DNA of 20,000 nt from IMG/VR virus record IMGVR_UViG_3300046685_000084. One strand, given 5' to 3'. Shown one piece after another: positions 2,544 to 19,135 of the stretch (position 1 is the stretch's first letter; each line of letters opens with the position of its first letter). The notes beneath the pieces are model-generated. The model searched no databases and had not been told where the DNA came from. It saw only the letters and a program-made list of their open reading frames with translations. The stretch is from an uncultured virus (IMG/VR IMGVR_UViG_3300046685_000084) (Duplodnaviria > Heunggongvirae > Uroviricota > Caudoviricetes). The position numbers and the translations under genes were made by a program.

Positions 2544-3323
2544 ATGGCAAATATTAAACCCGATTTAAATAAACTTAGAACTGAGATAGATTCCCGTAAA
2601 CGTGAAAAGGGCACTCTTGTTGAAAATGCTCAAGGTGTACAAATGCCTGCAAAGGATGTGTTCTTAAATAGTTTGATGACTTCTGTTTTAACAGGTCAAA
2701 ATACGCCAGTTGTGAACAATATAAAGACAATGAATGAAAGGGCAGATATTGTTAGTGGCGCAATTAAAACGGGTATAGTAACTCCAGAAGCAATAAATAA
2801 AATAAAGGAACTAAAGAATTCCACTGGTTATGTTGCTCCTGCTCCAGTAGCCACTCATCCACAATTTCGACAGCCAGTAAATGAAGTTGCCGAAATGTCA
2901 CCAGACAGAGAAGATGCATTTTATGGCGACCTTAATAGGAAAGTAAAAAATATCACACTTGCTGAATCTATCGAAGGATTTAATAAAGAAAGAATAGCTA
3001 CAAATCCAAATCAATTATACAACGCTAAAGGGCAACCTGTTAATCCAGATGGAAGTTTATTAAATCCACCTGCATTAACATTTAATAATAATGGTATGCC
3101 AATGTTAAATGAAGGTTATTTGGTAGAAAACGTGAAGAAAGTTGTTAGCAACTATCTTATTGAAAATTTAGGTCCTATTATGGAAGAATCGATTAAAAGT
3201 ACGATTCTTGAACTCTATGCAGTTGACCGAATAAAAGAAGTGCTTACCGAGAATAAGGAAATGATAAAAACGATAGTGTACGAAACTATACGAGAACTTC
3301 AAGCAAAGAAAAAGGGACAGTAA
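2544..3323 (+). CDS. Hypothetical protein, possibly prohead core/scaffold-like
   Basis: 259-aa ORF with a helical C-terminus and many [LIV]-x-E motifs (LVE, VNE, LAE, LNE, LIE, LTE, IRE). Function is inference only. Confidence 0.7.
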   Translation: MANIKPDLNKLRTEIDSRKREKGTLVENAQGVQMPAKDVFLNSLMTSVLTGQNTPVVNNIKTMNERADIVSGAIKTGIVTPEAINKIKELKNSTGYVAPAPVATHPQFRQPVNEVAEMSPDREDAFYGDLNRKVKNITLAESIEGFNKERIATNPNQLYNAKGQPVNPDGSLLNPPALTFNNNGMPMLNEGYLVENVKKVVSNYLIENLGPIMEESIKSTILELYAVDRIKEVLTENKEMIKTIVYETIRELQAKKKGQ

Positions 3324-3339
3324 GATGTCCTTTCTTTTT
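3312..3339 (+). terminator. Rho-independent terminator overlapping the stop of 2544..3323
   Basis: AAGGGACA-gtaaga-TGTCCTTT stem-loop (one G-U pair) followed by CTTTTT. Confidence 0.6.
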
Positions 3340-3351
3340 ATAATCAAGTTT

Positions 3352-3360
3352 GTATTTATT
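3352..3360 (+). promoter_or_regulatory. GTATTTATT putative late promoter
   Basis: Motif directly after the terminator, 20 nt upstream of ATG 3381. Confidence 0.6.
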
Positions 3361-3380
3361 AATAACTTAATATTCTTGGA

Positions 3381-6300
3381 ATGACATACGCTGAATTCAA
3401 ACAGAATTTCTTACCAGAATTTCTTAAAATCAAATCATTTGCAGGCAAAGTAAAATATGCCAGCCAATACCTCACAAGAATTGGTTCGGGTACTGGTAGA
3501 ATTGTATATGACATTGATGGCGAAAAAGTATTGAAACTTGCTAAGAATCCCAAGGGTGTTGCTCAGAATGAGACTGAAGCAGGTGCAGGATATTATCGTG
3601 ATACTCAGCATATAGTTACAATAGTATTTGATAGTGCTGATGATGATTCTTGGATAATTTCAGAAAAGGCTAAAAAGGTCAACGAAGCAAGAATTAAACA
3701 ACTGACAGGAATTCCAAATCTTATTGAATTGTGGAAATATTTAAAAAATCAGCATTCAGCCAATAGGGGTAAAGGACAACCATTACATCAAGAACCAGAT
3801 ATGGTTGAAGCGTTAGTCAACAATGAATTTGCACAAGATTTATATGAATTTATTGAAAATTATAGCCAAGAACCTGGCGATATGGATAGACCAAGTACAT
3901 TTGGTGAAGTATTACGTGACGGTCAACCGTCAATAGTGTTAACCGATTATGGACTTAATGATGAAGTTTATAATACCCATTATGCTCCAAAAAGACAACA
4001 AAATCATCGTATTTTTGAACTTTATAATTTCCAAGACGGTAATGATGATATTCTTGGCGATATGCCACCACAAGATGCCATTGATACACGTCAAGGTATG
4101 TGGGCATTAATGCCTTACAGTGTTGGTGATGGACCTGGAGTAATTAATGAAGAATTCCTGTCATTCGTAGAAAATACCGATAAATATCCACAAGAAATTA
4201 CGTTACCAAGTACTCCATACATACTTGACGAATTTCATAATGTAGTAAACAATCTCAAAGAAGTTCTCAACCACGTTAAAGACAAAAAGAAATTCTATGG
4301 TAAGTTATTGGAACTTCAAGATTATCTTATTAGAGGAAAATTCTATGACAGAGAACCGCTTGAAGAAGAAATAGTGCAATTACATGAAGCCAATACGCCT
4401 GGAGTTAAGCCGATGTCATTGAAAAAAGATTATAGTAATACTGTAGCCGAATCTGTTGCGCAAAAATTAAATCTTGGTACTGCCGAATTTCTTGGTGGTG
4501 GTGGATATGGATTTGCATACACAATTAATAACAATAGAGTATTGAAAATAACAACAGACGTATGTGAAGTAGATGCAGGGTTGAAAATTCAAAGAGCAAA
4601 ACCCCAAGCACTTGTGGCAGTTTATAATATATATAAAGTAATTGATAGAGAAAATAATATAACAACATATGCCCTTATTGAAGACCATATCGCAAATAAG
4701 CCGATTGATGAATTTTTTGGATACATTAGTACTATGAATGAAATTAGTATTGTAAATGAAATTAAGCCAAACACTAATTTATATGGAAATCTTTTAATTG
4801 CATTGAGAAAAAAGAAATTGGACGAATATGTAAAATTAAGTCAAAAAATTTTAACTGAAAATCCTACCGCAAATATATCTCAATTTGACAGGCAAAAGGC
4901 TTATCATTTTATGATGGGATTTCTTGAAATTAAAAGGGAATTAATACAACTTCAAATTAAGTCCGATGATTACAGTAATTTAGAAAATGTGGGTTATAAG
5001 AATAATATTTTAACATATTTTGATATTGGCGGTTGCTTTAATATAATGCAAGAACCACAACTTCCACCAGAAAACCGTATCATGCTTCCCGAAGGCGAAG
5101 AATTATTGGATGAGGGTGTTAGTAGAGAAAATGCCGATAAAATTGCTAACGTAGTTGCACAAAAATACTATAATACTGCTCCCAAATATATTGGTGAAGG
5201 AGTGTTTGGTGTTGCTTATGACATAGGCAATAATATGGTGCTAAAGGTTACGGGAGATAAAAGTGAGGCAAACGAAAATCTCATGCTTATTGGTAAACCA
5301 TTGGAACATATTGCAAAGCCATATAAGGTATTTTCAATTAAACCAAAATCTGGTGATACGGAATTATACATAATTATACTTGAAAAACTCCGAACTAATC
5401 CTGCCGAATTTAAAGCAATTAAAGACAGAATGGATTTTGCTTTTAAAAGAATAATGAATATTGATTATCCCGATGTGGTTGATTATTATGTTAATGGCTA
5501 TTCTCCAGGACTTGATGTTGATGAAGAAATGGTCGAAAAATATATGGCAAGAAATCCAAAAGATGCCGACTTTTTTTATGGAGTTGTGAGAATCGGAAGA
5601 GAAGCAAAAGAGTATAGTATTGAAAGTATGGATTATGTAAATCCCACTAATCTTGGATATATGCCAGACGGTAGTTTGGGTTTCTTTGATGTTGGTTTTG
5701 GTAATTATTTCTTTCAAGCAGATAAACAACCAGAAGAAATTCAAGTTGACGAAGATGGCTCTGCAAAATTCAGTACACCAAATAGTTTTGGTCAAGATAA
5801 TTTTCCACCATATGATAACACTGCTGACGATTCTCCTTTGACAGACAATAATGTTCCGACAACTGTTGATGAAGATTTAGAATATCATAATGTTGTGGGT
5901 GATGCGACACAGGATAAATATGAACTTGATGAAAGAATTAAGTCGTTTCAGCCAGGAAGTCAGAGTGTTGAAGTTAAGCAGAAGTGCAGATTAGCGGGTA
6001 ATGGAAATACTTCAACTGCATGCAATCAAGGAGATATTAATAATCTGAACATCAAGCCAATTAAAGAAAGTGCAGGAAATAGTTCTAAAGATTTTTGGGG
6101 ATGGGTTTCTCCGGACAATAAACTTATTAAAGTTCCATATCTCGACCATAGAAGTTTTATTGAGAAAAAATATCCTGAATATGCAAATGATGTTACCGAA
6201 TTATTTAACGTGGCATTTAGAGATGGCTGGGTTAGAGTGACATATGAATACAATCAAAGCAACTATCAAGGTAGTTTGGCTTTAAATGGATATGACAAAA

Positions 6301-8516
6301 GCAGAGTAAAACAAGTACTTAAAGATAAGTTTTTTAATTTAGTTAAATATGGTAACAATACAATTTATGTTGACTTTGAAGAGCCTTCAAGTAAAGAGCC
6401 ATATACTGTTCCGGATAATAGTTTGGCATTTTCGACACGTGATAGTGATGGAAAAGCTAAATTAATAAATTTTATAAGTGAAGAAATTGATGCTAAAGAA
6501 GTATATAATGATACAAACTACAATAAGGCACTTAAATCTGTTATTAATGGCAAAAGGGATGTGTGCTTTATTGAAATGAATCAGGCTAACGTAAATCTTG
6601 TTGAAAAGAATAAACTTCGTATTATTCCGACAAGAATGACATTACAGAATACTATGATGGCAATTGTTTATCGTGATAGTATTAAGGCGCATAAATTATA
6701 TGATATTGCTAAAAGTCATGGTGGATATCTTAACGATAAATCTGCTGAAGAAGCACGTGAAATTGGTCAATTATTGGGTTATAAAGAAGCAAGCATCGAA
6801 GAATATATACATAGAAAATACGGCAATAAAACACCAATAATGCCAGATAGGTCGCCTGATGATTTTGATGACCTTGCGGAAGGCGAATTTGATAATTATG
6901 AAAAAGAAATTGAGAAAGACAATCTAACACACGGTCTGGATAAAAAATTAATCAGAACTTATAATGATGGTATTGACGTTAATCCCGTCTATGCTGTTAA
7001 TGGTGATGAAGTACGTGAAAGTGGTTTTATTGAATGGGTTGAGGGTGGTAACCATTGGGTAGATTATGACTTACCGAGAAATGAACAGAAGTATGCAAAA
7101 CGCATACCTGCGGATGATTTGTGGGTTGATGACGTACATTTGGCAAAACCAAACGACTTTGAAGGAATATTATTGCACGAAAGAACTGAAAGTTATGTGA
7201 TAAAACATTATGGTTATACTTATGATGATGCACATGATATTGCAAATAAGATTGAATTACTCTTTAGAAAGAAAACACAAGAGCAAAATATTCAAAATGA
7301 TGAAGATTCTGAAGCATTAAGTAGTTCAATGTTTACCGCATTTAAGAAGCATTTTAAAGGCAAGAAAGGTCATACAAATTTTCAAAATGAAGGCGTGAGC
7401 GATGTTGCCGCAGAAAAACAATTTGGTATACAACAACCACATCAAGGCTTTGAAGATAAGTTTGCAAGAGACCAACAGGAAGATGTTGTTTATACTGACC
7501 CCAACAGTGATTTGGTAATTATTAGAAATCCTAAAAGACTTGATAGTATTTTTGGCTATGCCAGAGGCGTTATTGATACAATAGGAAATCTGTATATTGA
7601 ACAACGACCAACTGGAATACATTTTGATGTGCTATATGCATTAAATAAATTAGGTCTTGTTGAAGACGAAGAAGATTGGGATGTTAGACTTCCCCATAAT
7701 TTTGTAACAGTACAAAGATATTTAAGGTCCAACAAAATATTGCTTGGTGAATCGAATTTTGCAATGATTCCCGATAAAGAAAGACCCACACTTAGTAAAA
7801 CATGGCAGGCAATTCCAACTTATGAAGAAGCCAAGCCAGTTTATCAAAGATTCTTAGATAGAGCAAAACAAAAAACACCTGTTTTTGAATTTATTAATGA
7901 ACCTCTGCAGAGATATAAAAAGAAAATTGAGGCGGGTGCAGTAAACGAATTATTTGAAAATAAGCCTACCACGCAATGCAAAGAAGTTCAACTAACTTCT
8001 GAAATCAGAGAATATTTACAGAAGTTCGATTCAGATGAAGAACTTTTGAGAAGTGGTGGAATTCCTGTCGATATGCTTGATAGAGCAGCATTTGGATTTG
8101 ATGACAGCCTTAAAGAATTAATGCCCAAACAATTATCAATTAAATGGAACGATGATTTAGAAAATGTTAAGTGGGAGGTAAAAAAGAAAGGATTAACTGA
8201 TGTTGATTACGCAAAAAAGATTAACTTAGCCGAGCCAATTGATGTGTCATTTGATGGTAAAAATTTTAATATTGAAGATGGTCATCATAGGTATTATGCT
8301 GCGAGTGTATTAAATTTGCCGTTGAAAATTAATCTCGAAATAAAGGCAAATCCGGTTGCAGCTTTAAGTCAAGGTATGGGATATGATGATTTTCATAGGT
8401 GTATATGGAAACAAGCACATAATGTAACAGAAATATTGAACGAAAATATGGTTAATGAGACAGAATTAATTTTAAATAATATTAACGAAGCAAAAATGAT
8501 GATGAAAATAATGTAA
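3381..8516 (+). CDS. 1711-aa polyvalent multidomain protein: three protein-kinase-fold domains, Cys-motif segment, GW..P..H..GWVR domain, IG.LLGY domain, zincin-like HExxE domain, unknown shared domain, ParB/Srx-like domain
   Basis: Kinase motifs: IGSGTGRIVY/VLK/GD/DYG; LGGGGYGFAY/VLK/DYSNLEN/FDIG; IGEGVFGVAY/VLK/DYVNPTN/FDVG. Zincin-like LLHERTE...AH...E. ParB/Srx IEDGHHRYYAA. Confidence 0.85.
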   Translation: MTYAEFKQNFLPEFLKIKSFAGKVKYASQYLTRIGSGTGRIVYDIDGEKVLKLAKNPKGVAQNETEAGAGYYRDTQHIVTIVFDSADDDSWIISEKAKKVNEARIKQLTGIPNLIELWKYLKNQHSANRGKGQPLHQEPDMVEALVNNEFAQDLYEFIENYSQEPGDMDRPSTFGEVLRDGQPSIVLTDYGLNDEVYNTHYAPKRQQNHRIFELYNFQDGNDDILGDMPPQDAIDTRQGMWALMPYSVGDGPGVINEEFLSFVENTDKYPQEITLPSTPYILDEFHNVVNNLKEVLNHVKDKKKFYGKLLELQDYLIRGKFYDREPLEEEIVQLHEANTPGVKPMSLKKDYSNTVAESVAQKLNLGTAEFLGGGGYGFAYTINNNRVLKITTDVCEVDAGLKIQRAKPQALVAVYNIYKVIDRENNITTYALIEDHIANKPIDEFFGYISTMNEISIVNEIKPNTNLYGNLLIALRKKKLDEYVKLSQKILTENPTANISQFDRQKAYHFMMGFLEIKRELIQLQIKSDDYSNLENVGYKNNILTYFDIGGCFNIMQEPQLPPENRIMLPEGEELLDEGVSRENADKIANVVAQKYYNTAPKYIGEGVFGVAYDIGNNMVLKVTGDKSEANENLMLIGKPLEHIAKPYKVFSIKPKSGDTELYIIILEKLRTNPAEFKAIKDRMDFAFKRIMNIDYPDVVDYYVNGYSPGLDVDEEMVEKYMARNPKDADFFYGVVRIGREAKEYSIESMDYVNPTNLGYMPDGSLGFFDVGFGNYFFQADKQPEEIQVDEDGSAKFSTPNSFGQDNFPPYDNTADDSPLTDNNVPTTVDEDLEYHNVVGDATQDKYELDERIKSFQPGSQSVEVKQKCRLAGNGNTSTACNQGDINNLNIKPIKESAGNSSKDFWGWVSPDNKLIKVPYLDHRSFIEKKYPEYANDVTELFNVAFRDGWVRVTYEYNQSNYQGSLALNGYDKSRVKQVLKDKFFNLVKYGNNTIYVDFEEPSSKEPYTVPDNSLAFSTRDSDGKAKLINFISEEIDAKEVYNDTNYNKALKSVINGKRDVCFIEMNQANVNLVEKNKLRIIPTRMTLQNTMMAIVYRDSIKAHKLYDIAKSHGGYLNDKSAEEAREIGQLLGYKEASIEEYIHRKYGNKTPIMPDRSPDDFDDLAEGEFDNYEKEIEKDNLTHGLDKKLIRTYNDGIDVNPVYAVNGDEVRESGFIEWVEGGNHWVDYDLPRNEQKYAKRIPADDLWVDDVHLAKPNDFEGILLHERTESYVIKHYGYTYDDAHDIANKIELLFRKKTQEQNIQNDEDSEALSSSMFTAFKKHFKGKKGHTNFQNEGVSDVAAEKQFGIQQPHQGFEDKFARDQQEDVVYTDPNSDLVIIRNPKRLDSIFGYARGVIDTIGNLYIEQRPTGIHFDVLYALNKLGLVEDEEDWDVRLPHNFVTVQRYLRSNKILLGESNFAMIPDKERPTLSKTWQAIPTYEEAKPVYQRFLDRAKQKTPVFEFINEPLQRYKKKIEAGAVNELFENKPTTQCKEVQLTSEIREYLQKFDSDEELLRSGGIPVDMLDRAAFGFDDSLKELMPKQLSIKWNDDLENVKWEVKKKGLTDVDYAKKINLAEPIDVSFDGKNFNIEDGHHRYYAASVLNLPLKINLEIKANPVAALSQGMGYDDFHRCIWKQAHNVTEILNENMVNETELILNNINEAKMMMKIM

Positions 8517-8545
8517 ATAATATGATTCTTTTAGTAGACATGTTA

Positions 8546-8554
8546 GTATTTATA
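8546..8554 (+). promoter_or_regulatory. GTATTTATA putative late promoter of the homing endonuclease gene
   Basis: Motif 13 nt upstream of ATG 8568. Confidence 0.6.
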
Positions 8555-8567
8555 TAAAAATATTAAC

Positions 8568-9383
8568 ATGGGAAAACCGAGAACATATTCGATAGACGAA
8601 AATTATTTTAATGAGATTAATTCAAACAATAAAGCCTATATATTAGGTTTTATTTATGCAGACGGTAGTGTATGTAAAAATTATTTAAGTATTTGGTTGT
8701 CGGATAAAGATATTGAAATTTTAGAATTTATTAAATTGGAGTTAAAATATGAAGGTAAAATATATGTTCGTAATAATGAAATAAAAAATAAAAAATATGT
8801 AGGATTTTCCGTTTCGTCGAAAAAAATGGTTAATGATTTAATAAAATTGGGTGTCGTTAGAAATAAAACCTATTTATCAAAGGAATTACCAATTTATGAT
8901 AAGAAATATGAAGCAGCGTTTCTTAGAGGCTTTTTTGATGGTGATGGGTCAATATATTTAAATAATAATAGGGGGTATGATGAATATACGATTTGTTTTT
9001 CTGGTAATATTAGAGTTTTGGGCCAAATAAAAAATATATTGATAGGATACGATATCTCAAGTTGCAACATAAGGCATAGACATAGTAGCGATGAATCATG
9101 TATGTTGGAAATTAGAGGTAATTTAAATATTGAAAAAATATATAATTTATTTTATAATAATGCTGATTTTTATTTAAAAAGAAAAAAAGAAAGATTTAAT
9201 AACTTTAAATTAATGTTAACAAAATTAATAAAAAGAAATTTATCGGATGAAATAATAAACAACATAAGAATTTCATATTGTTCAGGAATGAAACAATTTC
9301 AAATAGCTAATGATAATAATATGCCTAAAAGTTCGGTAAGAACGGTAATACAAAGACTTAGGAAATATGGGGAAGTTAAATAG
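8568..9383 (+). CDS. Free-standing LAGLIDADG homing endonuclease with C-terminal HTH
   Basis: Two LAGLIDADG motifs (AYILGFIYADG, FLRGFFDGDG), typical phage 'DENYF..I' leader, and C-terminal HTH-like 'GMKQFQIANDNNMPKSSVRTVI'. Visibly more AT-rich than its neighbours. Overlaps the next gene by 17 nt. Confidence 0.92.
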   Translation: MGKPRTYSIDENYFNEINSNNKAYILGFIYADGSVCKNYLSIWLSDKDIEILEFIKLELKYEGKIYVRNNEIKNKKYVGFSVSSKKMVNDLIKLGVVRNKTYLSKELPIYDKKYEAAFLRGFFDGDGSIYLNNNRGYDEYTICFSGNIRVLGQIKNILIGYDISSCNIRHRHSSDESCMLEIRGNLNIEKIYNLFYNNADFYLKRKKERFNNFKLMLTKLIKRNLSDEIINNIRISYCSGMKQFQIANDNNMPKSSVRTVIQRLRKYGEVK

Positions 9384-12306
9384 TTTTATATTAAATTTAA
9401 GGGAAAAACCTTTCATTCAATCAATTATAAATGACTTGGGAGGCGAAGTTTTTGCAATGGGTGGAGTAGTTCGTGACCTTATACTTAACAAGCCAAATAA
9501 AGATATTGATTTGGTTGTTAGAAAAGTGTCAATAGATAGATTAATATCACAATTACAAAAATTTGGTAGAGTAGATGTTGTGGGTAAATCATTTGGGGTT
9601 ATTAAATTTATTGATAGTAATGGTGTCGATTATGATGTGGCTCTGCCAAGAACAGATAAAAAAAATGCTGAAGGTGGATATCGTGGATTCGATGTACAAA
9701 GCGATGAAAATTTGCCAATTGAGGCAGATATTACGAGAAGAGATGCTAAGATGAATGCAATGGCAATAAATATTAACACCGGAAAGTTTATTGACCCATT
9801 AGGTGGATTGAAAGATATTGAAAATAAACAGATTTCTGCTGCAAATCCGGAGGCGTTTTCAGACGACCCCTTAAGGATGATAAGAATTGTAGCATTTGCT
9901 AGTCGTTTTGGTTTTACTATTGAACTACAGACCATGCAGATGATTAAAGATAATGCTCATAGAGTAAAAGAAATTGCACCGGAAAGAATTTTGACAGAAT
10001 TTGACAAAATTATTGAGAAAGGCAATATAATTTTGGGAGTAAACCTTTTGACTAATACTGGATTGTATGAGCAAATATTTGGTGGTATTAAAAATACCGT
10101 AAGTCCGTTATTTGCTGATGTTCAGACGATGGGCGAATTTATTTATCTATTGGCTGTCGGTACAGTACCAAGTCCTGCAGAATTCTACAAGAACAATCTC
10201 AAGGGTGATATTCCAACATATAAAGAAATTAAGGCACTTGAATTGGCATTTACATTACCCGATATAAGTCTTCCTATTATTGAAAGGTCAACTGTTCATA
10301 ATATGTATTTACTTAGTCCACAAGCATTGCAAAGTCAAATAATTCCAATGGGATTACAAAAAGCCTCAGAAGAATTTCAACAAGGTAAATATCCTAAGAC
10401 CGTTAATGAATTGGCTGTAAATGGACAAGACTTGATGAGCGTTGGATTACAAGGTAAAGCTGTTGGTGATATGCAGAAGTCTTTACTATTAAAGATTTAT
10501 GCCGATAAGGTTAGAAATTCCAAGGAAGATTTATTAGCTTTGGCAAGACCTAATGGTGAAGTTATTAAAGAAGAAGTGAAGCCTGAAGACAAAATTGAAT
10601 ATGGTTGTTTGATGTTATTTCTTGATGTGCCTATTTGGAGTAAAATTACTTCCGTTATTAATCGTGAAGATATTTATGATGCTCCGGGATATGGAATTGA
10701 AACAGAACCACATACAACAATATTATATGGCTTTCATGATGAAGTAACTTCGGAAGATTGTTTTAATTTGTTCAAGGAAAACATGCCTGTGAAACCATTT
10801 AAGATAGGAATTAAAGGTATATCATTCTTTACAGGTAATCCTAAGTTTGATGTTGTTAAGTTCGATGTTGAATCACCAGAACTTACAGAATTAAATGAGG
10901 TTATGAAGGCATTACCACATACCAGTGCATTTCCAGATTATCATCCGCACATTACAATTGCGTATGTTAAACCCGGAGAAGGACAGAAGTATGTTAAGCC
11001 ATTCAAAAAGAACAGAATGCTCAATGGTAATGAATTGGTTTATACTTGGAAAGGTCATAAAGGTAATGACGGTGATAAACTCATGCTTGATGGTAGTATA
11101 GATGAAAGTATTGCAGATAAAGCAGCAGAGAAAATGTTTAATATTCCAAATCAGAGTGCAAAACAAGATATTCAAGCTGCAGGAGCAGTACAGGCGCAGG
11201 AAGAAAAACCAGTTGCTGTTATAAGCAAAATGAAAAATGGTAAAATTGATGCCTTTAGCATTGGAATATATGAAAACCCCAAATCTTTAGCTAATTTTGG
11301 TTCAAATACGAGAGCGATTGTAGACTTTGATGGAAACTTATTTATTGCACAAGAAAATGGTTGGTTCAATCACGGTGACATGGCACAAGTATTAGGTATT
11401 AGTGATTGGGAAGATGGCGTATACGAACAAATGGAAGAATATCAATTACTACAAAGAATTGAGAATAGCAATGCATTTGGATTAGCAGATAGTAGTGCAG
11501 ACTTTGCAGGCAGTAGACCATTATTGCCCAATGACCTTGAACCCAATCAAGATGAATATAATGAGAATTTTAAAATAGTTAACAACATATTACGTGCAGC
11601 TAAAAGAAAAAACCCTCAATATGATTTTTATAGTCAATACTATTTGAGTATTAATACTGAACCAGTTAGTCTTGAAGAAACCTATATGTACAATACATTG
11701 GAGCCAAAAAAATCTACTTGGAATGTAAGTGGTCAAACTGTCGACATTAATTTCTTCACTGACCAATATTATCAGTGGAATCAAGACAGATATGTATATA
11801 CAACAACAAAATCCGTATTGGAATTTCTTGATAATAATTATCCTGATTTAATGAATGATGAAAAATTAAAACACGATTTATATCACAAATTGGTCGATAA
11901 TGAAATACTTGATGAAGAACAGAAACAAATGAAAAACGTCAGATATACTGCAGTTGTACTTGATGATAAATCACGTACTGCTTTGTTAAAAAGACTTGGA
12001 AATATGATACCCGAAGGTTGGGAAACTATTGCACATCACATGACAATTAATATGGGTGCTATTGTTCCGGAGTTTGCAAAATTCTTGGGAATGAATGTTG
12101 ATTTAAATGCAGAAGACTTTGCTGCAGATGATAAAGTTATGGCTGTGGGTGTTGCAGGTATGCCAACTAAGAATGGTAAGCCACATATAACATTGGCAGT
12201 CAATCGTGCAAATGGTGGCAAACCAATGATGTCAAATCAATTAACTAATTGGGAAAAATTAAGCGAACCGCTTGTTTTAAGTGGTAAAGTAACTGAAGTA
12301 GAATAA
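9367..12306 (+). CDS. cca: 979-aa fusion: class II CCA-adding-type tRNA nucleotidyltransferase, Acb1/T4 gp57B-like 2H phosphoesterase, unknown domain(s), second 2H phosphoesterase (tRNA-ligase CPDase/SAK-like)
   Basis: NTase motifs GGVVRD, KDIDL, RRDAKMNAMA, FSDDPLRMIR, ERILTEFDK and tail LAVNGQDL. First 2H: YGCLM...PHTTILYG...PHITIAY. Second 2H: YTAVVLD...HHMTI...PHITLAVN. Confidence 0.9.
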   Translation: MGKLNSFILNLREKPFIQSIINDLGGEVFAMGGVVRDLILNKPNKDIDLVVRKVSIDRLISQLQKFGRVDVVGKSFGVIKFIDSNGVDYDVALPRTDKKNAEGGYRGFDVQSDENLPIEADITRRDAKMNAMAININTGKFIDPLGGLKDIENKQISAANPEAFSDDPLRMIRIVAFASRFGFTIELQTMQMIKDNAHRVKEIAPERILTEFDKIIEKGNIILGVNLLTNTGLYEQIFGGIKNTVSPLFADVQTMGEFIYLLAVGTVPSPAEFYKNNLKGDIPTYKEIKALELAFTLPDISLPIIERSTVHNMYLLSPQALQSQIIPMGLQKASEEFQQGKYPKTVNELAVNGQDLMSVGLQGKAVGDMQKSLLLKIYADKVRNSKEDLLALARPNGEVIKEEVKPEDKIEYGCLMLFLDVPIWSKITSVINREDIYDAPGYGIETEPHTTILYGFHDEVTSEDCFNLFKENMPVKPFKIGIKGISFFTGNPKFDVVKFDVESPELTELNEVMKALPHTSAFPDYHPHITIAYVKPGEGQKYVKPFKKNRMLNGNELVYTWKGHKGNDGDKLMLDGSIDESIADKAAEKMFNIPNQSAKQDIQAAGAVQAQEEKPVAVISKMKNGKIDAFSIGIYENPKSLANFGSNTRAIVDFDGNLFIAQENGWFNHGDMAQVLGISDWEDGVYEQMEEYQLLQRIENSNAFGLADSSADFAGSRPLLPNDLEPNQDEYNENFKIVNNILRAAKRKNPQYDFYSQYYLSINTEPVSLEETYMYNTLEPKKSTWNVSGQTVDINFFTDQYYQWNQDRYVYTTTKSVLEFLDNNYPDLMNDEKLKHDLYHKLVDNEILDEEQKQMKNVRYTAVVLDDKSRTALLKRLGNMIPEGWETIAHHMTINMGAIVPEFAKFLGMNVDLNAEDFAADDKVMAVGVAGMPTKNGKPHITLAVNRANGGKPMMSNQLTNWEKLSEPLVLSGKVTEVE

Positions 12307-12833
12307 TGGACGACAATAAAGAACATCCTTGGCAAGAAACATCGGAAGAAGGATTTGGCTATGAAAACGAATGCCTTAAAGATATTAATAATAAAAAATA
12401 TCCTGTTGCATATAGAAATTTAGATAAAGAAAAATATAAACTTTACGATATTATTCTTTTCGATGGCAAAATTCCTATTGTTCTTGAAAACCATAAAAAA
12501 GTAGAATGTAAATTTGATAAAAGAGGTCTTTTTACAGGCAACATTTGTATTGAAGTTGGCTGTAATGGTATTGCATCGGGTTTGATTACTTCCGAAGCAG
12601 AATATTGGATTATTTGTGACAGTGTTACAGAATATTTAATAAAAAAATCGGAAATACATCGTTGTATTGTTGAAAACATAAATATTATTCGATATGAACC
12701 CAAGTATTTGTTGAAACAAGAAGGTGGTATTTATAAAGAAATGAGTTTGTATTTAATAAATTCTACTATATTTACAGACTATTGTTTAGAAATTAAAGAC
12801 AGAGGTAAATTAACATACGAGAAAATGATATGA
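12306..12833 (+). CDS. PD-(D/E)XK-fold nuclease (phage family)
   Basis: 'YDII...VECKFD...TGNICIEV...SGLITSEAEYW' pattern. Coupled to neighbours by TAATG and ATGA overlaps. Confidence 0.7.
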   Translation: MDDNKEHPWQETSEEGFGYENECLKDINNKKYPVAYRNLDKEKYKLYDIILFDGKIPIVLENHKKVECKFDKRGLFTGNICIEVGCNGIASGLITSEAEYWIICDSVTEYLIKKSEIHRCIVENINIIRYEPKYLLKQEGGIYKEMSLYLINSTIFTDYCLEIKDRGKLTYEKMI

Positions 12834-13396
12834 TTAAGAGATTAGCAGTATTTGATTTTGATGGAACTCTTATGGATTCTCCTATGCCGGAAACAGGTAA
12901 AACACAGTGGTCGGAGAAAATGGGAAAGCCATATCCATTCTCAGGGTGGTGGGGCAGACCAGAAAGTTTAGATTTACAGATATTTGACATAAAACCATTT
13001 CTAAGTGTGTTGAAACAACTGAAAAAGGAAATTGTCACCCCCGGAACTTATGTGGTAGTCCTCACATCGAGAATGGAAAAACTACGTCCGCAAGTTCAAG
13101 CAGTACTTGATGCTAATAAAATTAAGGTTGATAAACTTGATATGAAACGTGCTGAAGGCAATAAAGGCACAAAAGTATTGCGTTATGTACAACAATTTCC
13201 CGACCTAAAAAGAATTAATGTTTATGAGGACCGTGATACTGATATCGAAGCATATGAAGGAATCAGAAATCAAGTACCACCTGGCATTGAATTTAATATC
13301 TATTTGGCAAACGAAGGTACTTTGGCATTAACCGAATCCAGTCGTAGTAATAACATATTGTGCATTATTCAAGAAGAAATTCAAAAATTAAAATAG
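12830..13396 (+). CDS. HAD-superfamily phosphatase, Swiss Army Knife RNA-repair-like (HAD_SAK)
   Basis: Motif I FDFDGTL.DSP, the WW..PESL segment characteristic of SAK-type HADs, motif II LTSR, conserved K, motif IV YEDR. Confidence 0.85.
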   Translation: MIKRLAVFDFDGTLMDSPMPETGKTQWSEKMGKPYPFSGWWGRPESLDLQIFDIKPFLSVLKQLKKEIVTPGTYVVVLTSRMEKLRPQVQAVLDANKIKVDKLDMKRAEGNKGTKVLRYVQQFPDLKRINVYEDRDTDIEAYEGIRNQVPPGIEFNIYLANEGTLALTESSRSNNILCIIQEEIQKLK

Positions 13397-13398
13397 AT

Positions 13399-13407
13399 GT
13401 ATTTATA
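13399..13407 (+). promoter_or_regulatory. GTATTTATA(GAAAA) putative late promoter
   Basis: Same 14-mer GTATTTATAGAAAA as at 18712-18725. Confidence 0.65.
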
Positions 13408-13411
13408 GAAA

Positions 13412-14269
13412 ATGTGTACGATGATAACAATGAAACACAAACCTCTTTATTTACCACAAATTAACATGCCTGTCGATGCGGTTGTAAAGCAACTGGATGA
13501 AGAGGGTGTTGATTATGAATATGTTCAAATACAACCAAGTGAATCTGATGGCATAAATCCCTCACAAGGTTTTACTTTTAGTGATGATGTCGGAAAGGTT
13601 GAACTCGATGACAAAAATCCAATTTGGCTTGCTAAAGAAGGTGATAAAGATAAAATTTGTGATGGTCATCATCGCTATACCCGTGCATTATTGGATGAAG
13701 TTCCAATGACTGCCATAAAAATAGATATGGATTTTAAAGATGCTTGTAGATTACTTAATAAAATACAGGATGTTTATGATTATACGGAACAACAGAGAAT
13801 GGAAGAAGTTGTTGCACAAGATGCTATCAATGCAAATAATGAAACAAACTCAGGTGCAAGTTACAATGAATTTCTAAGCAATCTTGAAGAAGATAACGCA
13901 GGTGTTCAAACAGAAAAACCAAGTAAAAATGATAAAGTAATTATCGGCTATCGTAGAGACCCTATAAGCGAAACTTCAGTCATTGGTAATTTTTTTACAA
14001 TAAGTCCGATAGAAGGATTTACACCATACGAAATTGAATTTGAAAACTTATTGGATACAAATGATTTGGGGGTTCAGTTTAAGGATAGCCAAATACCTGC
14101 AGAAATACTTGCAAAGATTTGGTTTCCGCACGTGAATTTCGAAAAATTAAGTGAGCAATATAATATTCCTTCACTTAATTTAAAAAATAAAGCCATTGCC
14201 GAAAAAGCAAAACACATGGGTTTTGATGGCATTAAATATGGCGATACATTATTACAAGGATTAAAATAA
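13412..14269 (+). CDS. ParB/Srx-like N-terminal domain plus possible degenerate ADP-ribosyltransferase-like C-terminal domain (true start may be 13421 or 13430)
   Basis: PSQ...PIW...ICDGHHRY (ParB/Srx). C-terminal 'GYR...GNFFT...YEIEFENLLD...GFDGIKY' resembles the ART-PolyVal layout. Confidence 0.7.
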   Translation: MCTMITMKHKPLYLPQINMPVDAVVKQLDEEGVDYEYVQIQPSESDGINPSQGFTFSDDVGKVELDDKNPIWLAKEGDKDKICDGHHRYTRALLDEVPMTAIKIDMDFKDACRLLNKIQDVYDYTEQQRMEEVVAQDAINANNETNSGASYNEFLSNLEEDNAGVQTEKPSKNDKVIIGYRRDPISETSVIGNFFTISPIEGFTPYEIEFENLLDTNDLGVQFKDSQIPAEILAKIWFPHVNFEKLSEQYNIPSLNLKNKAIAEKAKHMGFDGIKYGDTLLQGLK

Positions 14270-14275
14270 ATTATT

Positions 14276-14650
14276 ATGGCAAATTATAGAATTACAAACA
14301 TAACAGATACATTGGGAAAGCGTGAAGCTAAGTACGATGCAACATTAGATTTGAACTATATAGATTCAATGATGAAGAAGACCATTAAAGTTAAACCAAG
14401 TGAAACGGTTTATCTGAAAATACATTCATTACCACTCTCAATTCAGCAACTCAGAGTAAAGAAACTCATTAGTGTTGTTGAAATCAGCAATACAGAATTG
14501 GCGAATTGCATGAATGAGCACAAGCCAGTCATTCAGCCAATGCCTGTACCCGTAGAAATGGTAGAAACTCAAGAAGAAACCGAAAAAAGAGTGGCAACTA
14601 CAGAAAAAAAGAAAACGGGTAGAAAACCTCATGAAGTACTTGAAAGTTAG
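14276..14650 (+). CDS. Hypothetical protein (124 aa), charged disordered tail
   Basis: ORF in operon context, followed by a terminator. Confidence 0.75.
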   Translation: MANYRITNITDTLGKREAKYDATLDLNYIDSMMKKTIKVKPSETVYLKIHSLPLSIQQLRVKKLISVVEISNTELANCMNEHKPVIQPMPVPVEMVETQEETEKRVATTEKKKTGRKPHEVLES

Positions 14651-14675
14651 TAATATGCAGTAATATCGATATTCG

Positions 14676-14701
14676 AAGCCAACAAAATGTTGGCTTTTTT
14701 T
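14676..14701 (+). terminator. Rho-independent terminator
   Basis: AAGCCAACA-aaa-TGTTGGCTT perfect 9-bp stem plus T tract. Confidence 0.85.
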
Positions 14702-14743
14702 ATAAAATGTCTTGCCACTTGGCAGATTTTCCGCTATTTTTAC

Positions 14744-14752
14744 GTATTTATA
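14744..14752 (+). promoter_or_regulatory. GTATTTATA putative late promoter
   Basis: Motif after the terminator, 38 nt upstream of ATG 14791. Confidence 0.6.
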
Positions 14753-14790
14753 ATTAATTACATTATTTTATAATATTTTATAAATACAAC

Positions 14791-16173
14791 ATGGACGGAA
14801 AAATTAGAATCTTATTCTATAATTTAGACGGGGCGGGCGTAAACTACTTCAGAACACTAACGCCTGCACAAGAACTTGAAAAAAATCACTCAGATGAATT
14901 TTACTCCGAAATAAATCCTGAACTCGATTTTAATGACCCTAAGACAATTGATTATCTCAAAACTTTTCACATCATACATTATCATCGTCAATTTTTACAA
15001 GACAGTCAAAAGATGAAGCAACTTGTCGAAGAGTTGCGTAAGAATGGCACAATCATAATGGTTGACATTGATGACTACTGGCAATTACATAAGAATCACC
15101 CCTTCTATTCACTTAGTTTAGAAAAGAAAATGCATATTCCCATTTTGGAGAATCTTAAGATGGCTGACTATGTAACTACAACCACAGACTTATTTGCAGA
15201 AGAAATTCGTAAAGTTACTGGTAAAGATAATGTTGGGGTATTTTATAACTCAATTGACCCCACATGGATGAAACAATTTCAAAACAACTGGAAACCCGAC
15301 CCTGATGGTCTTGTTAGAATTACATATATGGCAGGTTCTTCTCACATGGGTGATGTTCAACAACTTGATGGAGTATTCAATGTACTTCATAATGATTGGA
15401 ATTTAAAGAACAAATTTAAAGTAATTATTGCTGGTTGGGATACGGAAGGTAATACTACTGATATCACATTCAACCAAGATTTTGGCGATGAACTACAGAA
15501 AATCGGTAAGTGGACCATTAGCAATGTTAAAATTATTAATAAAACTCGTGGTAATGTTGATATGATTCCCGGCTTGTCACAAGAATTGAAAGACAAATAC
15601 AGGGGCAAAGTTTTTAGTGAGAATCAAAGAGACATCAAATCTGAAGAAAGCGTTTATCTTATCTATGAAAAAATTCTGACAGATAATCACCGTAATATTG
15701 AAAACAAAGATTACGTGCAGTGGTTATCAAATATGGAAAGAAATGTTAATTATGATAATGAAGGCAACTTTGGTAGACGTTGGACTCAAAAAGCAAATAC
15801 ATATGCCCAAGTATTGGACGAAACCGATATTGTAATAGCACCACTTGCAGACAATCCATTTAACAGAATGAAGTCTAATTTGAAACAAGTGGAATGCTGG
15901 ACAAGGAAACTTCCAATAGTATGTTCAGGTATTCCACCATATGATGTAGATGGTAGACATTTAGAAAATTGTGTACTAATTCCTGCAGAAAAAAATGCCA
16001 GAAAGTATTGGCAGAAGTATTTAAAAAGACTAATATTAGATGCTGACCTTCGTAAACAACTTGGAGAACAGCTATATGAAGACTTTAAAGATAAATATAA
16101 TTTAGCTGATGTTACTAAGAAACGTGCAGACTTTTATAGAGCTGCAGTTATGAAAACATTGGCAGTAGTATAA
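14791..16173 (+). CDS. GT-B fold glycosyltransferase (GT4-like phage family)
   Basis: 'GVNYFRTLTP', 'DIDDYW', 'ADYVTTTT..FAEEI', 'NSID', 'GSSHMGD', 'DIVIAPLADNPFNRMKSNLKQVE', 'LRKQLGEQLYE'. Confidence 0.85.
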   Translation: MDGKIRILFYNLDGAGVNYFRTLTPAQELEKNHSDEFYSEINPELDFNDPKTIDYLKTFHIIHYHRQFLQDSQKMKQLVEELRKNGTIIMVDIDDYWQLHKNHPFYSLSLEKKMHIPILENLKMADYVTTTTDLFAEEIRKVTGKDNVGVFYNSIDPTWMKQFQNNWKPDPDGLVRITYMAGSSHMGDVQQLDGVFNVLHNDWNLKNKFKVIIAGWDTEGNTTDITFNQDFGDELQKIGKWTISNVKIINKTRGNVDMIPGLSQELKDKYRGKVFSENQRDIKSEESVYLIYEKILTDNHRNIENKDYVQWLSNMERNVNYDNEGNFGRRWTQKANTYAQVLDETDIVIAPLADNPFNRMKSNLKQVECWTRKLPIVCSGIPPYDVDGRHLENCVLIPAEKNARKYWQKYLKRLILDADLRKQLGEQLYEDFKDKYNLADVTKKRADFYRAAVMKTLAVV

Positions 16174-16184
16174 AACTAAAAACA

Positions 16185-16856
16185 ATGAATTTCAAAAAAT
16201 TAAAATCAGTAAAGAAAAGGTCGAAACTCTATATGTGGTTCGCCAATTTAAGTGCAAAACTCTCAGGTCGTTATGTAAAAGATTGTCATCCGGCATTTAT
16301 GTCGTTTGTTGAAAAACACAATCTTGCAACGGCTTCTATTTGGAACAATGCTTGGGCAGAGAGATATGAAGAAATAATGAAAATGCTTAACAGTGATGAT
16401 TATAAAAAATATTTCTATAATGCTGTTGACTATAAACGTGAAGCAGTGAAACCATTACCACAAAAATGGTATGTTATGATTTTCGATAAGATTGTTTATG
16501 GTCTGTCTAAAGCATATGTGTTTGTTTTTGAAAGGGAACTATATAGAAAAATCAAACAATTCGAACTTGTTTCTAAGGGTGTTGCTAATTTAATAAAGAA
16601 AACAGACGAATATATTGCTTCAACCACTTCGTTACAGAGATTGTCAAGAATGCAGGCACTTGGAATCATTTCATATCAGAGTTTTCAAGATGATTTTGAT
16701 ATTCTTGTTAATCGAATACCTCACGAAGTAATAGAAGAACGACATAAAAAAATAGATGAAGAACTTCAAGCAAAACTTCGAGTAAAATTGGCTACTGTTG
16801 ACGAGCATAGAAAATTACCTGATGAGGTTGTTAAATTACTTCGTAGAGAACAATGA
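16185..16856 (+). CDS. Hypothetical protein (223 aa)
   Basis: Long ORF in operon with an ATGA overlap to the next gene. Confidence 0.75.
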   Translation: MNFKKLKSVKKRSKLYMWFANLSAKLSGRYVKDCHPAFMSFVEKHNLATASIWNNAWAERYEEIMKMLNSDDYKKYFYNAVDYKREAVKPLPQKWYVMIFDKIVYGLSKAYVFVFERELYRKIKQFELVSKGVANLIKKTDEYIASTTSLQRLSRMQALGIISYQSFQDDFDILVNRIPHEVIEERHKKIDEELQAKLRVKLATVDEHRKLPDEVVKLLRREQ

Positions 16857-17746
16857 TAGAATTCTTTAAAAAGATATATTATTGGTGTTATATAAAGATT
16901 CATACAGTTATAATAGCAATTAGTATTGCTTTATATAATACTGAGCAGGAGATATTGAAAGCTGACCCGAATGATTTACAGGAACGTGATAAACGTGAAA
17001 CCCGTAAGCTACATAGGAATCAGACTCTTGAAAAATTCTATGCTGGTAAAACAGATGAAAAATACGTGAAAGATTATTACGAAATATTAAAAAAAGCCGA
17101 TAAGTTCATGCGTACAGCAACTCCGCATCAAATGGCTGTTGCTGCAGATAAATATGCTAAAGGTTATGGTGGTGAAGATAAACATGGCAATAAGTATGAA
17201 CATTTTGGTTTCTTCGATGAAAAACATAAGCATGCAGGTAAAACTCTTACGGAAGTTTTTAAAACAGAATACGATGAAAGGCGTACTAAAGATGATGACT
17301 TAGAACTCGTATACATCTTCAATAACAAGCCAATTGTTGCGGGAATGGGAAAGTTTTACGAAGCACTTGAGAAGTCTAAAGAAGAAAAGACTGAGTTTGA
17401 AGTTACTGTGGTAAAATCCTGGGAATTTCCTCTCAAGGTCAGTCGTGAAACTGAAGTGGTGAATAAAATTGAGCAACTCACGGAATTCTTGCACATTAAA
17501 AAGATTGGTTTTGAATATAGGCAACTTGAATTCTTCATTCCTGTGAAGTTTAAGACATCCGAACTTACTGAGGACTCAGATACCTTCAAGGAGATAATAA
17601 ATGCCAAGGAAGTCTATATAAAGGACGAATATGGTCAGTTACACGGTTTCTCTATCCTCAAATATTTTAAAAGAATAAATTATAACAATACCCACGATGT
17701 TTTGAAATTCGAAGGAATTGAAATGGAAAATGTGGGCATACACTAA
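16853..17746 (+). CDS. Hypothetical protein (297 aa) with a hydrophobic N-terminal stretch
   Basis: Long ORF; N-terminus IYYWCYIKIHTVIIAISIALY. Confidence 0.75.
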   Translation: MIEFFKKIYYWCYIKIHTVIIAISIALYNTEQEILKADPNDLQERDKRETRKLHRNQTLEKFYAGKTDEKYVKDYYEILKKADKFMRTATPHQMAVAADKYAKGYGGEDKHGNKYEHFGFFDEKHKHAGKTLTEVFKTEYDERRTKDDDLELVYIFNNKPIVAGMGKFYEALEKSKEEKTEFEVTVVKSWEFPLKVSRETEVVNKIEQLTEFLHIKKIGFEYRQLEFFIPVKFKTSELTEDSDTFKEIINAKEVYIKDEYGQLHGFSILKYFKRINYNNTHDVLKFEGIEMENVGIH

Positions 17747-17757
17747 AATCAAATAAT

Positions 17758-18180
17758 ATGTCAAAATTTTTAGATGACCTTAAAAATGCTGCAGATAAGG
17801 GTGAATTTAATTCCGAAGCAGCAAAAAAAATTATCGAAGTAGATAAACTTGCAGATAATGCAAATGTTGAAAATCTCGCAGACAGAATAGAAAAGGCAGG
17901 TGTTAAAACCGTTACCGAAGAAGAAGCATCAATAATTAATTCGGATTATGAAAAAAAGATGCTGGAAATTAAAGAAAAAGATTTAGCTTTGCATCAGATA
18001 GCGATACTCAAGGAAATTGATGAAACATTGATGTTAAGTCTCTATGATATGAAGGATTTTATTACAACTGTTGAAACTTCATTCGATAAGACTAAGCCAG
18101 TCAATGTCGAATTATTTCAAGAAGTAGAAAAAATCAAAAATAAATATAGTTCAATTATTAATCTCAATCAAATTATTTAA
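17758..18180 (+). CDS. Hypothetical helical protein (140 aa)
   Basis: ORF in operon with an A-rich leader. Confidence 0.75.
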   Translation: MSKFLDDLKNAADKGEFNSEAAKKIIEVDKLADNANVENLADRIEKAGVKTVTEEEASIINSDYEKKMLEIKEKDLALHQIAILKEIDETLMLSLYDMKDFITTVETSFDKTKPVNVELFQEVEKIKNKYSSIINLNQII

Positions 18181-18185
18181 ATTAA

Positions 18186-18650
18186 ATGGCAAAAATTGAA
18201 AAAGCATCTGATGACGTAAAACTTCTTTTCGAAGAAGTACGTGAGGAAACGACAATCCCTCAGTGGGTTGAATTCGAAGTCCTTTCAAGTAATAAACAAA
18301 AAGACCTTTATAAAATTGTTAAACTCAATGATATTGTTGAGACAATAACAGAAGGTTTGAACTTTGCGGTAGTTTTCAATGAAGAAATTCTTGACCAGCT
18401 TCCTGAAAACATGAAGAAAATGGCAATTGCAGAATGCCTTGCGGGTGTTTGTGTTGACGAAAATGATAAAGTATCATTGGAAAAACCTAACTTCAGCACT
18501 TACAGGGGCATTCTTGAGAAGTACGGACATGACCCAATCATAGTTCTGCATGAAAGTATCAAAAGTCTTTATGATAAGAGAAAACAAGAAGCAGACGAAG
18601 CAAAAGCACAGAAAAAAGGTAAAAGAGGTAAGAAAACCGCAGAGGTATAA
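18186..18650 (+). CDS. Phage metallopeptidase-like protein, probably catalytically inactive
   Basis: Overall pattern (hydrophobic strand, 'L....K..AI.E.L', 'F....GILEKYG') resembles the putative phage metallopeptidase family, but HExxH is absent (IAECLAG). Confidence 0.55.
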   Translation: MAKIEKASDDVKLLFEEVREETTIPQWVEFEVLSSNKQKDLYKIVKLNDIVETITEGLNFAVVFNEEILDQLPENMKKMAIAECLAGVCVDENDKVSLEKPNFSTYRGILEKYGHDPIIVLHESIKSLYDKRKQEADEAKAQKKGKRGKKTAEV

Positions 18651-18674
18651 AACAATTCTAATTTAAATTAAGAC

Positions 18675-18703
18675 AAATCCTGGCACATCGTCAGGATTTT
18701 TTT
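18675..18703 (+). terminator. Rho-independent terminator
   Basis: AAATCCTGGC-acatc-GTCAGGATTT stem (one G-U pair) plus T tract. Confidence 0.8.
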
Positions 18704-18711
18704 GTTTATTA

Positions 18712-18720
18712 GTATTTATA
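18712..18720 (+). promoter_or_regulatory. GTATTTATA putative late promoter of the baseplate operon
   Basis: Motif between the terminator and the gp25-like gene, 13 nt upstream of ATG 18734. Confidence 0.7.
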
Positions 18721-18733
18721 GAAAATCTTATAT

Positions 18734-19132: not shown

Positions 19133-19135
19133 AAT

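Follow-up and report, generated by a model that had tools for sequence, protein, structure and literature searches.

The locus and its module map

In this work, a window of 20,000 nucleotides (nt) from an uncultured tailed phage (IMG/VR record IMGVR_UViG_3300046685_000084) was analysed around a giant open reading frame (ORF) of 1711 amino acids (aa), which runs unbroken on the + strand from 3381 to 8516. An earlier note on this DNA had described the product as a polyvalent protein that strings together about nine unrelated modules. The uninterrupted ORF and the order of the modules were borne out, and the boundaries proposed there were right within a few codons. The domains are indeed disparate, but they are not unrelated throughout, because the kinase-like modules K2 and K3 are paralogues with 25-26% identity. 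Moreover, aa 214-257, 792-831, and 832-851 each form a separate segment, a short acidic peptide that is conserved. From the sequences and structure models described below, we consider it probable that the product is a head-packaged polyprotein of a large T4-type phage, which is cut into about ten cargo proteins. The features are listed with the last three residues of each segment as its end; presence is counted among 23 other orthologues.

3352..3359, + strand: probable late-promoter element GTATTTAT (motif found upstream of orthologues)
3381..8516, + strand: modular ORF of the putative polyprotein, 1711 aa (ORF, orthologues, AlphaFold models)
3381..3419, + strand: leader T-Y-x-E-F resembling the T4 capsid-targeting sequence (CTS), end L-P-E13 (likeness to the T4 CTS, PMC8442874)
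3420..4019, + strand: kinase-like module K1, aa 14-213, end I-F-E213 (phrog_4301 match, alignment)
4020..4151, + strand: conserved acidic peptide, aa 214-257, end I-N-E257 (22/23 orthologues, low pLDDT, the predicted local distance difference test score)
4152..4388, + strand: small helical module, aa 258-336, end L-H-E336 (23/23, model)
4389..5114, + strand: kinase-like module K2, aa 337-578, end L-D-E578 (structure match; 15/23)
5115..5753, + strand: kinase-like module K3, aa 579-791, end V-D-E791 (structure match; 14/23)
5754..5933, + strand: two conserved acidic peptides, aa 792-831 and 832-851, ends V-D-E831 and L-D-E851 (orthologue inserts)
5934..6068, + strand: two-Cys basic peptide, aa 852-896, end I-K-E896 (22/23)
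6069..6482, + strand: GW module, aa 897-1034, end I-S-E1034 (4/23)
6483..6881, + strand: NleE/OspZ-like S-adenosylmethionine (SAM)-binding methyltransferase fold, aa 1035-1167, end L-A-E1167 (structure, profile; 11/23)
6882..7391, + strand: metallopeptidase-like HExxE module, aa 1168-1337, deviant end Q-N-E1337 (alignment; 8/23)
7392..7949, + strand: repeated shared module, aa 1338-1523, end V-N-E1523 (match to the ORF of the CCA-adding enzyme; 8/23)
7950..8444, + strand: ParB/sulfiredoxin (Srx)-like module, aa 1524-1688, end L-N-E1688 (structure, phrog_1033; 2/23)
8445..8516, + strand: tail with V-N-E1693 and I-N-E1703, like the junction ahead of the CCA module in fused orthologues

A Pfam search with the whole protein and ten segments gave nothing significant, and phmmer with the whole protein found no match in the PDB. 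AlphaFold models of aa 1-792 and aa 897-1688 consist of confident modules joined by low-confidence linkers, with predicted template modelling scores (pTM) of 0.37 and 0.35, respectively. The earlier note had named one integrated structural protein, such as a tail protein, as an outcome that would refute its reading. A single structural protein of the tail or baseplate could be suggested by baseplate wedge genes about 10 kb downstream of the ORF. We give this explanation next to no credence, because the models resemble separate beads on a string, several modules have enzyme folds, and whole modules are freely gained and lost. The two-Cys peptide (5934-6068) and the acidic peptide (4020-4151) are the least variable segments of the family and are kept in homologues without K1; both peptides are candidates for an anchor that binds the prohead core.

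Module gain and loss at [ILV]-x-Glu linkers

The scan with K1 gave 29 loci, of which six near-identical ones (L007, L012, L014, L023, L024, and L029) were dropped, and the remaining 23 were used together with the window; four of these 24 orthologues end at contig ends. The proteins range from 755 to 2688 aa (the longest in L006). A comparison of orthologues for domain gain and loss had been suggested in the earlier note, and whole modules are indeed gained and lost, with 18 presence patterns among the 24 proteins. A fixed scaffold, consisting of K1 (by selection), the acidic peptide, the helical module, the further acidic peptides, and the two-Cys peptide, is present in 21-23 of the 23 others. 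In L019, K2 and K3 are gone between L-H-E336 and V-D-E791 with one copy of the motif left, and extra modules are inserted at E851 or E831 in L011, L020, and L028. Scans of viral contigs with single modules yielded only a few further loci. Four homologous putative polyproteins (P0071, P0087, P0106, and P0111) have a Nudix-like start, recognised by eye, in place of K1.

The motif was first noticed by reading the module ends, and the boundaries for a breakpoint test were then set on motif-masked sequences. After alignment of 276 pairs, 192 of the 489 long gaps were kept, namely those flanked on both sides by 40 columns with 12 or more identities, and merged to 156 positions. Of these 156 breakpoints, 128 have the motif [ILV]xE at a distance of at most 10 aa, compared with 55.7 for random positions (maximum 73) and 62.8 for shuffled windows (maximum 79). 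The T4 rule L/I-x-E, which was set a priori (PMC9026906), accounts for 104 of the 156 against 44. Control motifs were at or below expectation, namely 40 for [ILV]xD, 23 for [ILV]xK, 13 for [ILV]xQ, 45 for [ILV]xN, and 34 for [AGS]xE (31 expected). The enrichment is kept when no mask or masks of control motifs are chosen (128/159, 136/172, and 127/163). Furthermore, in a second set of 40 long proteins, which remained of 51 after removal of 11 that were close to the first set, the motif was at 172 of 247 positions, against 78 for random positions and 91 for shuffled windows. The junction sites have a mean pLDDT of 46 (n = 9) compared with 79 at other sites (n = 38), and their retention among orthologues is 0.83 compared with 0.42; in both contrasts the junction labels were set with the motif in view. 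The junction motif occurs in all orthologues and is repeated in tandem in linkers. Modules are swapped, gained, lost, and duplicated at these [ILV]-x-Glu linkers.

The motif could also be a by-product of acidic linkers, if the protein acted late in the cytoplasm as a multi-enzyme hub for RNA repair and conflict and were never packaged. The density of the motif over the whole protein is modestly raised (uncorrected p 8e-4 to 0.03), and the CCA-adding enzyme, 2H phosphoesterase, HAD phosphatase, and Nudix protein encoded in fused modules or neighbouring genes would fit RNA repair (PMC7824862). Such a hub is quite improbable, since shuffled junction windows keep the composition and lose the enrichment, T4-like leaders are found on stand-alone copies of modules, and the upstream motif is common with head genes.

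Leaders, head protease and probable late expression

In phage T4, the prohead protease gp21 cuts after L/I-X-E, and in the ten-residue CTS targeting depends on the aromatic residues 4 and 7 and cleavage on residues 8 and 10 (PMC9026906). Processing of T4 Alt takes place at both ends, at ITE and LTE (PMC5694885). Among the orthologues, [YF]xx[FY] was found in all 22 complete N-termini compared with 41 of 1057 background genes, and the stricter T[YF]xEF in 17 of 22 compared with 2 of 1057. Because the orthologues share ancestry, this conservation of the leader counts as one observation. A gp21-type protease (PF03420) together with a gp23-type capsid protein (PF07068) was present in four of five related contigs (218-334 kb). 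The protease of a relative matches T4 gp21 with E 5e-10, and the His, Ser, and Asp residues are kept where aligned. The capsid proteins of all three genomes that were read have I-N-E60 just before the core of the mature chain, twelve residues before the element aligning with residue 29 of the T4 mature chain, a position similar, not identical, to the T4 cut at 65. The gene preceding the capsid gene, which by its position we read as the scaffold, contains many such sites. In G002 (L058:15639-17558) and G003 (L077:9026-10813), the prohead protease gene holds about 400 extra residues in frame, which by eye resemble an intein; the protease ORF of G004 (L064:3107-3811) has 234 aa and no intein.

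The motif [GC]TATTTAT is located at most 70 nt upstream in all 21 orthologues examined. In the related genomes it precedes 50-67 of the 338-371 genes, compared with 8-11 in antisense and 4-6 in shuffled sequence, and the genes that bear it include those of the protease and at the scaffold position. We infer that it is probably a late promoter. Leader sites are enriched in the motif-bearing genes of G004 (16/59 compared with 45/312) and G003 (16/50 compared with 39/298), with p values of 0.02 and 0.003, respectively. Two types of leader, K-x-R-L-F-E-[VM]-M and I-I-x-E-E-I, end in [ILV]-N-E (L060-L073 in G004, L076-L092 in G003, and L055 in G002) and look like the capsid-targeting signals of this clade. 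The I-I-x-E-E-I type also ends the HAD phosphatase of the window (12830-13396).

Predicted functions of the modules

The earlier note had read three kinases. For K2 and K3 this reading stood in both fold and catalytic residues, as they align to protein-kinase-like structures (VIA Z 7.4-9.9) over a fold that runs up to DxG, and the catalytic Lys, Glu, Asp, Asn, and DxG are conserved in all 28 aligned copies. In K2 of the window these are K389, E396, D530, N536, and D548. Both modules stop 10-30 aa past DxG, K2 being truncated after it, so that the C-terminal subdomain is lost and the active-site residues are retained. K1 was supported as kinase-like by its match to phrog_4301 (E 2e-11) and has the Gly loop, Lys, Glu, Asp, and DxG in 21 of 21 sequences, but the position of the catalytic-loop Asn is taken by Ser/Thr in the same 21. 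K1 may be atypical or inactive. No structure covering K1, which was not folded alone, was among the matches listed. A profile search of structures with K2/K3 gave no relevant match, and Pfam on the K2/K3 alignment gave scattered weak matches only. The kinase clade of polyvalent proteins (PMC5512222) is marked by a conserved His that an insert separates from the catalytic Asp following it, and neither of the kinase alignments A1 and A2 contains such a His. That clade also has a Gln in the last N-lobe strand and a Glu before strand 2; many K2 orthologues have Q-E-N, which is found neither in the K2 copy of the window nor in K3. Stand-alone homologues of K1 occur in the cultured phages XacN1 (ORF170, a predicted ORF in the supplement of PMC5852040) and Xoo-sp13 (ORF166), and both start with a leader ending in L-S-E or L-T-E.

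The domain that the earlier note had marked by IG.LLGY is a real module, and its likeness to NleE had been missed. The model aligns to NleE (4r29) with VIA Z 10.4, a root-mean-square deviation (rmsd) of 2.4, and 111 aligned residues; the uncharacterised PG1857 (2guk) scores about equally (Z 9.7-10.0), and the NleE profile matches with E 1.2e-4. Arg107, Tyr212, and Glu191 of NleE were described as SAM-binding residues (PMC4239114), and R1059 and Y1142 are the counterparts of the first two. The profile of the module collected 330 representatives at E up to 0.001, and in the best 150 of these a basic residue is at the Arg107 position in 146 of 146 aligned homologues (119 R and 27 K) and an aromatic residue at the Tyr212 position in 147 of 149. 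In the HMMER alignment, Glu191 is opposite a gap, and no Glu is aligned there. The copy in the window has no Pfam match and reaches 15 bits in NCBIfam, where the cut-off is 75; the Pfam cut-off was reached by one of 12 short homologues tried. In the ESM Atlas only unnamed clusters were matched (0.87-0.90), and one stand-alone protein had no match among cultured phages. By counting the 139 of 154 domain hits with a usable start, [ILVM]xE was found ahead of the NleE-like core in 128, that is, in 55 of 61 N-terminal copies (19 expected) and 73 of 78 internal copies (49 expected). In the stand-alone genes, a short leader has the motif at its end in 55 of 61.

The occurrence of the same motif at the start of stand-alone modules would also be expected if the joints were fossil leaders, i.e., if head-targeted proteins became fused and kept their leader ends, and the chain were delivered largely intact or cut at few sites. 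One deviant junction and one at the end of a confident helix agree with this, and the N4 virion RNA polymerase and the plasmid proteins ArdC/TraC1 are delivered unprocessed (PMC5512222). We regard this explanation as unlikely. Junction sites are retained more than other sites (0.83 against 0.42, with labels set with the motif in view), they are tandem in linkers and also flank the short scaffold peptides, and an L/I-x-E that is exposed inside a T4-type prohead should be cut, judging by the rule in PMC9026906.

The ParB/Srx assignment of the earlier note was confirmed by a match to sulfiredoxin (Z 8.8, rmsd 2.7, 74 aligned residues) and to phrog_1033 (E 0.0015); a DGHHR motif is located at aa 1633. 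On the other hand, a zincin-like domain with HExxH was not found at the expected module, because all nine copies have H-E-x-x-E instead. Its residues are H1266-E-x-x-E1270, H1285, and E1292, and the later His and Glu occur in nine of nine copies. The model has a beta sheet followed by two helices, E1292 is invariant, and no zincin is among the structure matches listed for the module, which was not folded alone. A distant homologue, P0026, matches a metallo-protease PHROG (E 3e-6), and a profile search of structures with the module gave no relevant match. The module may bind metal. Its invariant His and Glu, together with the autoproteolysis proposed for zincin-like domains of polyvalent proteins (PMC5512222), could suggest that the chain processes itself. 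We find this very improbable, since there is no HExxH, and the module is present in only 8 of the 23 other orthologues, although all of them carry the junction motif.

The shared domain, which the earlier note had also reported, was verified by its match to the downstream ORF of the CCA-adding enzyme (E 1e-5), and up to three copies occur per orthologue. Without having been folded alone, it has no Pfam, Atlas, or structure match. Other copies stand alone or in another context (L067:11420-11983 in G004, and L044:13389-14336 and L045:8086-9351 in G002), two of them with I-I-x-E-E-[IL] leaders. The GW module, likewise not folded alone, gave only weak gelsolin-like structure matches with Z of about 5, within the common range. 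Pfam searches with the alignments of the shared and GW modules gave scattered weak matches only. Homology between these two modules was considered and rejected (hhalign probability 0).

The split gene and its surroundings

Two further features follow the 1711-aa ORF.

8568..9383, + strand: LAGLIDADG endonuclease gene in the split of the polyprotein gene (PF14528 E 1e-12, synteny)
9367..12306, + strand: second part, 979 aa, with CCA-adding enzyme, 2H phosphoesterase, shared module, and two more modules

By comparison with its orthologues, the 1711-aa ORF is apparently the front part of a split gene. The kinases and the CCA enzyme are in one ORF in 15 of the 24 orthologues, and seven, including the window, stop just before the CCA enzyme with a tail like I-N-E-A-K; of the remaining two, one is truncated, and the span fetched for the other contains no CCA enzyme. 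The joints of the 979-aa ORF are I-K-E402, I-D-E580, L-E-E771, and L-D-E850. Because no clear leader site is conserved across the split loci, the packaging of this second product is less sure. The split is filled differently in the different loci: by LAGLIDADG in the window (8517-9383), by Vsr/DUF559-like genes in L020 and L027, by unassigned ORFs in L019 and L025, and by nothing in L013 and L017. This suggests that splits are tolerated in this gene and that free-standing endonucleases have a hotspot there. A group I intron around LAGLIDADG was not supported, as there was no Rfam match, the endonuclease gene is preceded by an upstream motif of its own, and the split differs in content elsewhere. 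By comparing the window (9367-9420) with L004, L005, L013, L017, L019, L020, L025, and L027, two types of CCA start were distinguished. Most fused proteins have N-E-A-x-I-M-S-L..LPF, and the split ones plus two fused ones have K-[IL]-x-x-F..KPFI. The tails of the split front parts resemble the first type (N-E-A-x-I-M-S-L) and the downstream gene the second (K-[IL]-x-x-F). The 2H phosphoesterase (10573-11106) weakly matches the anti-CBASS protein Acb1 (PF23474, E 1e-5, just below the cut-off).

The window is a single-strand gene block of a tailed phage, AT-rich (28-35% GC), with baseplate wedge genes at its end, and its positions 6227-19767, which hold the 3' 45% of the 1711-aa ORF, are 100% identical in record G001. 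A Nudix ORF with L-N-E ahead of the Nudix domain and a 297-aa ORF with L-N-E21 after a short leader (524-2497) share the motif and are syntenic in 27 loci, and they are possibly further head cargo. On the - strand, 14665-14748 gave a weak Rfam match to the STnc430 small RNA below the gathering score (E 0.048); the region probably forms a hairpin resembling a terminator. All or part of 3300-12400 was found in 24 public runs, each labelled peat metagenome, with at least half of the sampled words in 19 of them and seven flagged as a possible source; a lone RNA run with 0.11 of the sampled words is no evidence of expression. The closest cultured matches to the capsid protein of a relative are Flavobacterium immuto phages with 33% identity. 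TAnnTTTG, which we take to be the -7 promoter element of Bacteroidota, is 2- to 3-fold enriched upstream of genes in the relatives. Both would weakly point to a host in Bacteroidota.

Proposed pathway from late expression to injection

We hypothesize that the polyprotein would be transcribed alongside the morphogenesis genes from the common upstream motif, and that the CTS-like N-terminus, the acidic and Cys peptides, or both, would draw the chain into the prohead core. During head maturation, the gp21-type protease would cut after [ILV]-x-Glu, which is positioned in the unfolded linkers, and about ten proteins of 9-27 kDa plus small peptides would be freed. These products would be ejected with the DNA and could modify host proteins or counter defences. 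Judging by the folds found, the cargo would include two intact kinase-like enzymes, the NleE-like methyltransferase fold, and the ParB/Srx nucleotide-handling fold, and from the second ORF the tRNA CCA enzyme and 2H phosphoesterase. Module gain, loss, and duplication also take place at these linkers.

Several observations weigh against this pathway. Only 15 of 22 orthologues have LxE behind the leader, at aa 8-18, and the other seven have none there; at least ten homologues have neither K1 nor its leader and start directly with the acidic peptide. A protease gene of the phage itself was found neither in the window nor in G001, and in G002 the leader sites are not enriched in motif-bearing genes (5/67 compared with 22/271, p 1.0). 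The breakpoints are related by descent, and the motif has a majority in 23 of 42 crude classes and in 10 of the 15 classes with at least three members. Ex[ILV] is also enriched (94/156), which we read as the P1-P2' context of the motif. The protein contains 52 [ILVM]xE sites, several of them fully conserved within domains, so the selectivity of cutting must come from folding. The joint at 1337 is off-motif (Q-N-E), and E1034 lies within a block of pLDDT 76 and is possibly structural, because the equivalent position of NleE is also a Glu (E85).

Packaging and cutting remain the explanation we favour. A stronger version is more tentative, namely a true polyprotein strategy in which one targeting signal would serve at least ten co-injected enzymes, the cut sites would be the swap points, and one cassette would be an active NleE-type cysteine methyltransferase on bacterial proteins. 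It would mean that the NleE-type class is a widespread phage effector, beyond a secreted virulence factor. The NleE fold, described as first in its class in enteric pathogens, would belong to a family that numbers at least 330 clusters, many of which have leaders of the phage type. In addition, the joints would provide a simple rule for splitting giant unannotated phage proteins into testable units; the whole protein has no significant Pfam match, whereas its parts matched kinase, NleE-like, and ParB/Srx folds. Each unit would be a candidate early anti-defence or takeover enzyme.

Comparison with known systems

The earlier note did not recognise the architecture as a described one, and none was found in the literature searched; nor was any description of prohead-protease-cut polyproteins, of this locus, or of phage homologues of NleE found there. 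This literature has few subscription journals, and the supplements of PMC5512222 may list related architectures. The NleE-like module shares with NleE/OspZ the fold over NleE residues 83-220 and the counterparts of Arg107 and Tyr212 (4r29; PMC4239114). It differs in being only 17% identical, in having no counterpart of NleE residues 1-82, and in being phage-encoded, so its substrate should be bacterial.

The polyvalent proteins of phages and conjugative elements (Iyer et al. 2017, PMC5512222) are alike in having many disparate enzyme domains per chain, a late-gene context, and a proposed injection. They also have kinases without the C-terminal subdomain and ParB-like, 2H, GNAT (in this family in L001), and peptidase-like domains. 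The polyvalent reading of the earlier note stood as to the disparate enzymes, the late context, and the gain and loss of modules; it did not stand as to the zincin, whose module lacks HExxH, and it missed the junction motif, the NleE-like module, and the split. The processing of polyvalent proteins is ascribed to an internal zincin or a C-terminal assemblin-like peptidase. Self-processing of this type does not fit here, because there is no HExxH and the module is missing from most orthologues; MuF, ArdC-N, and HExxH were not detected. In the available text of PMC5512222 the word prohead appears once, in a reference title. The joints of the window protein have the cut motif of a separate T4-type head protease.

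The phages phiKZ and SPN3US also have a Glu-specific prohead protease, redundant sites, and large processed ejection proteins (PMC5694885, PMC9026906). Their sites are S/A/G-x-E and serve the removal of propeptides, whereas [AGS]xE is not enriched in the family of the window (34/156 against 31), and the available parts of the same two papers describe no release of many separate enzymes. Another close parallel is found in the internal proteins IPI-III and Alt of T4, which have the L/I-x-E rule, a CTS-like N-terminus, and variable conflict-related cargo (PMC9026906, PMC5694885), and the stand-alone homologues of the modules resemble typical proteins of this kind. A T4 cargo has a gene to itself and sheds one or two propeptides at its termini, whereas in the window about ten candidate cargos are on one chain behind one leader. 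If this is right, the polyvalent proteins and the head-protease processing of T4 are joined here, and one gene would deliver swappable, separate injected enzymes.

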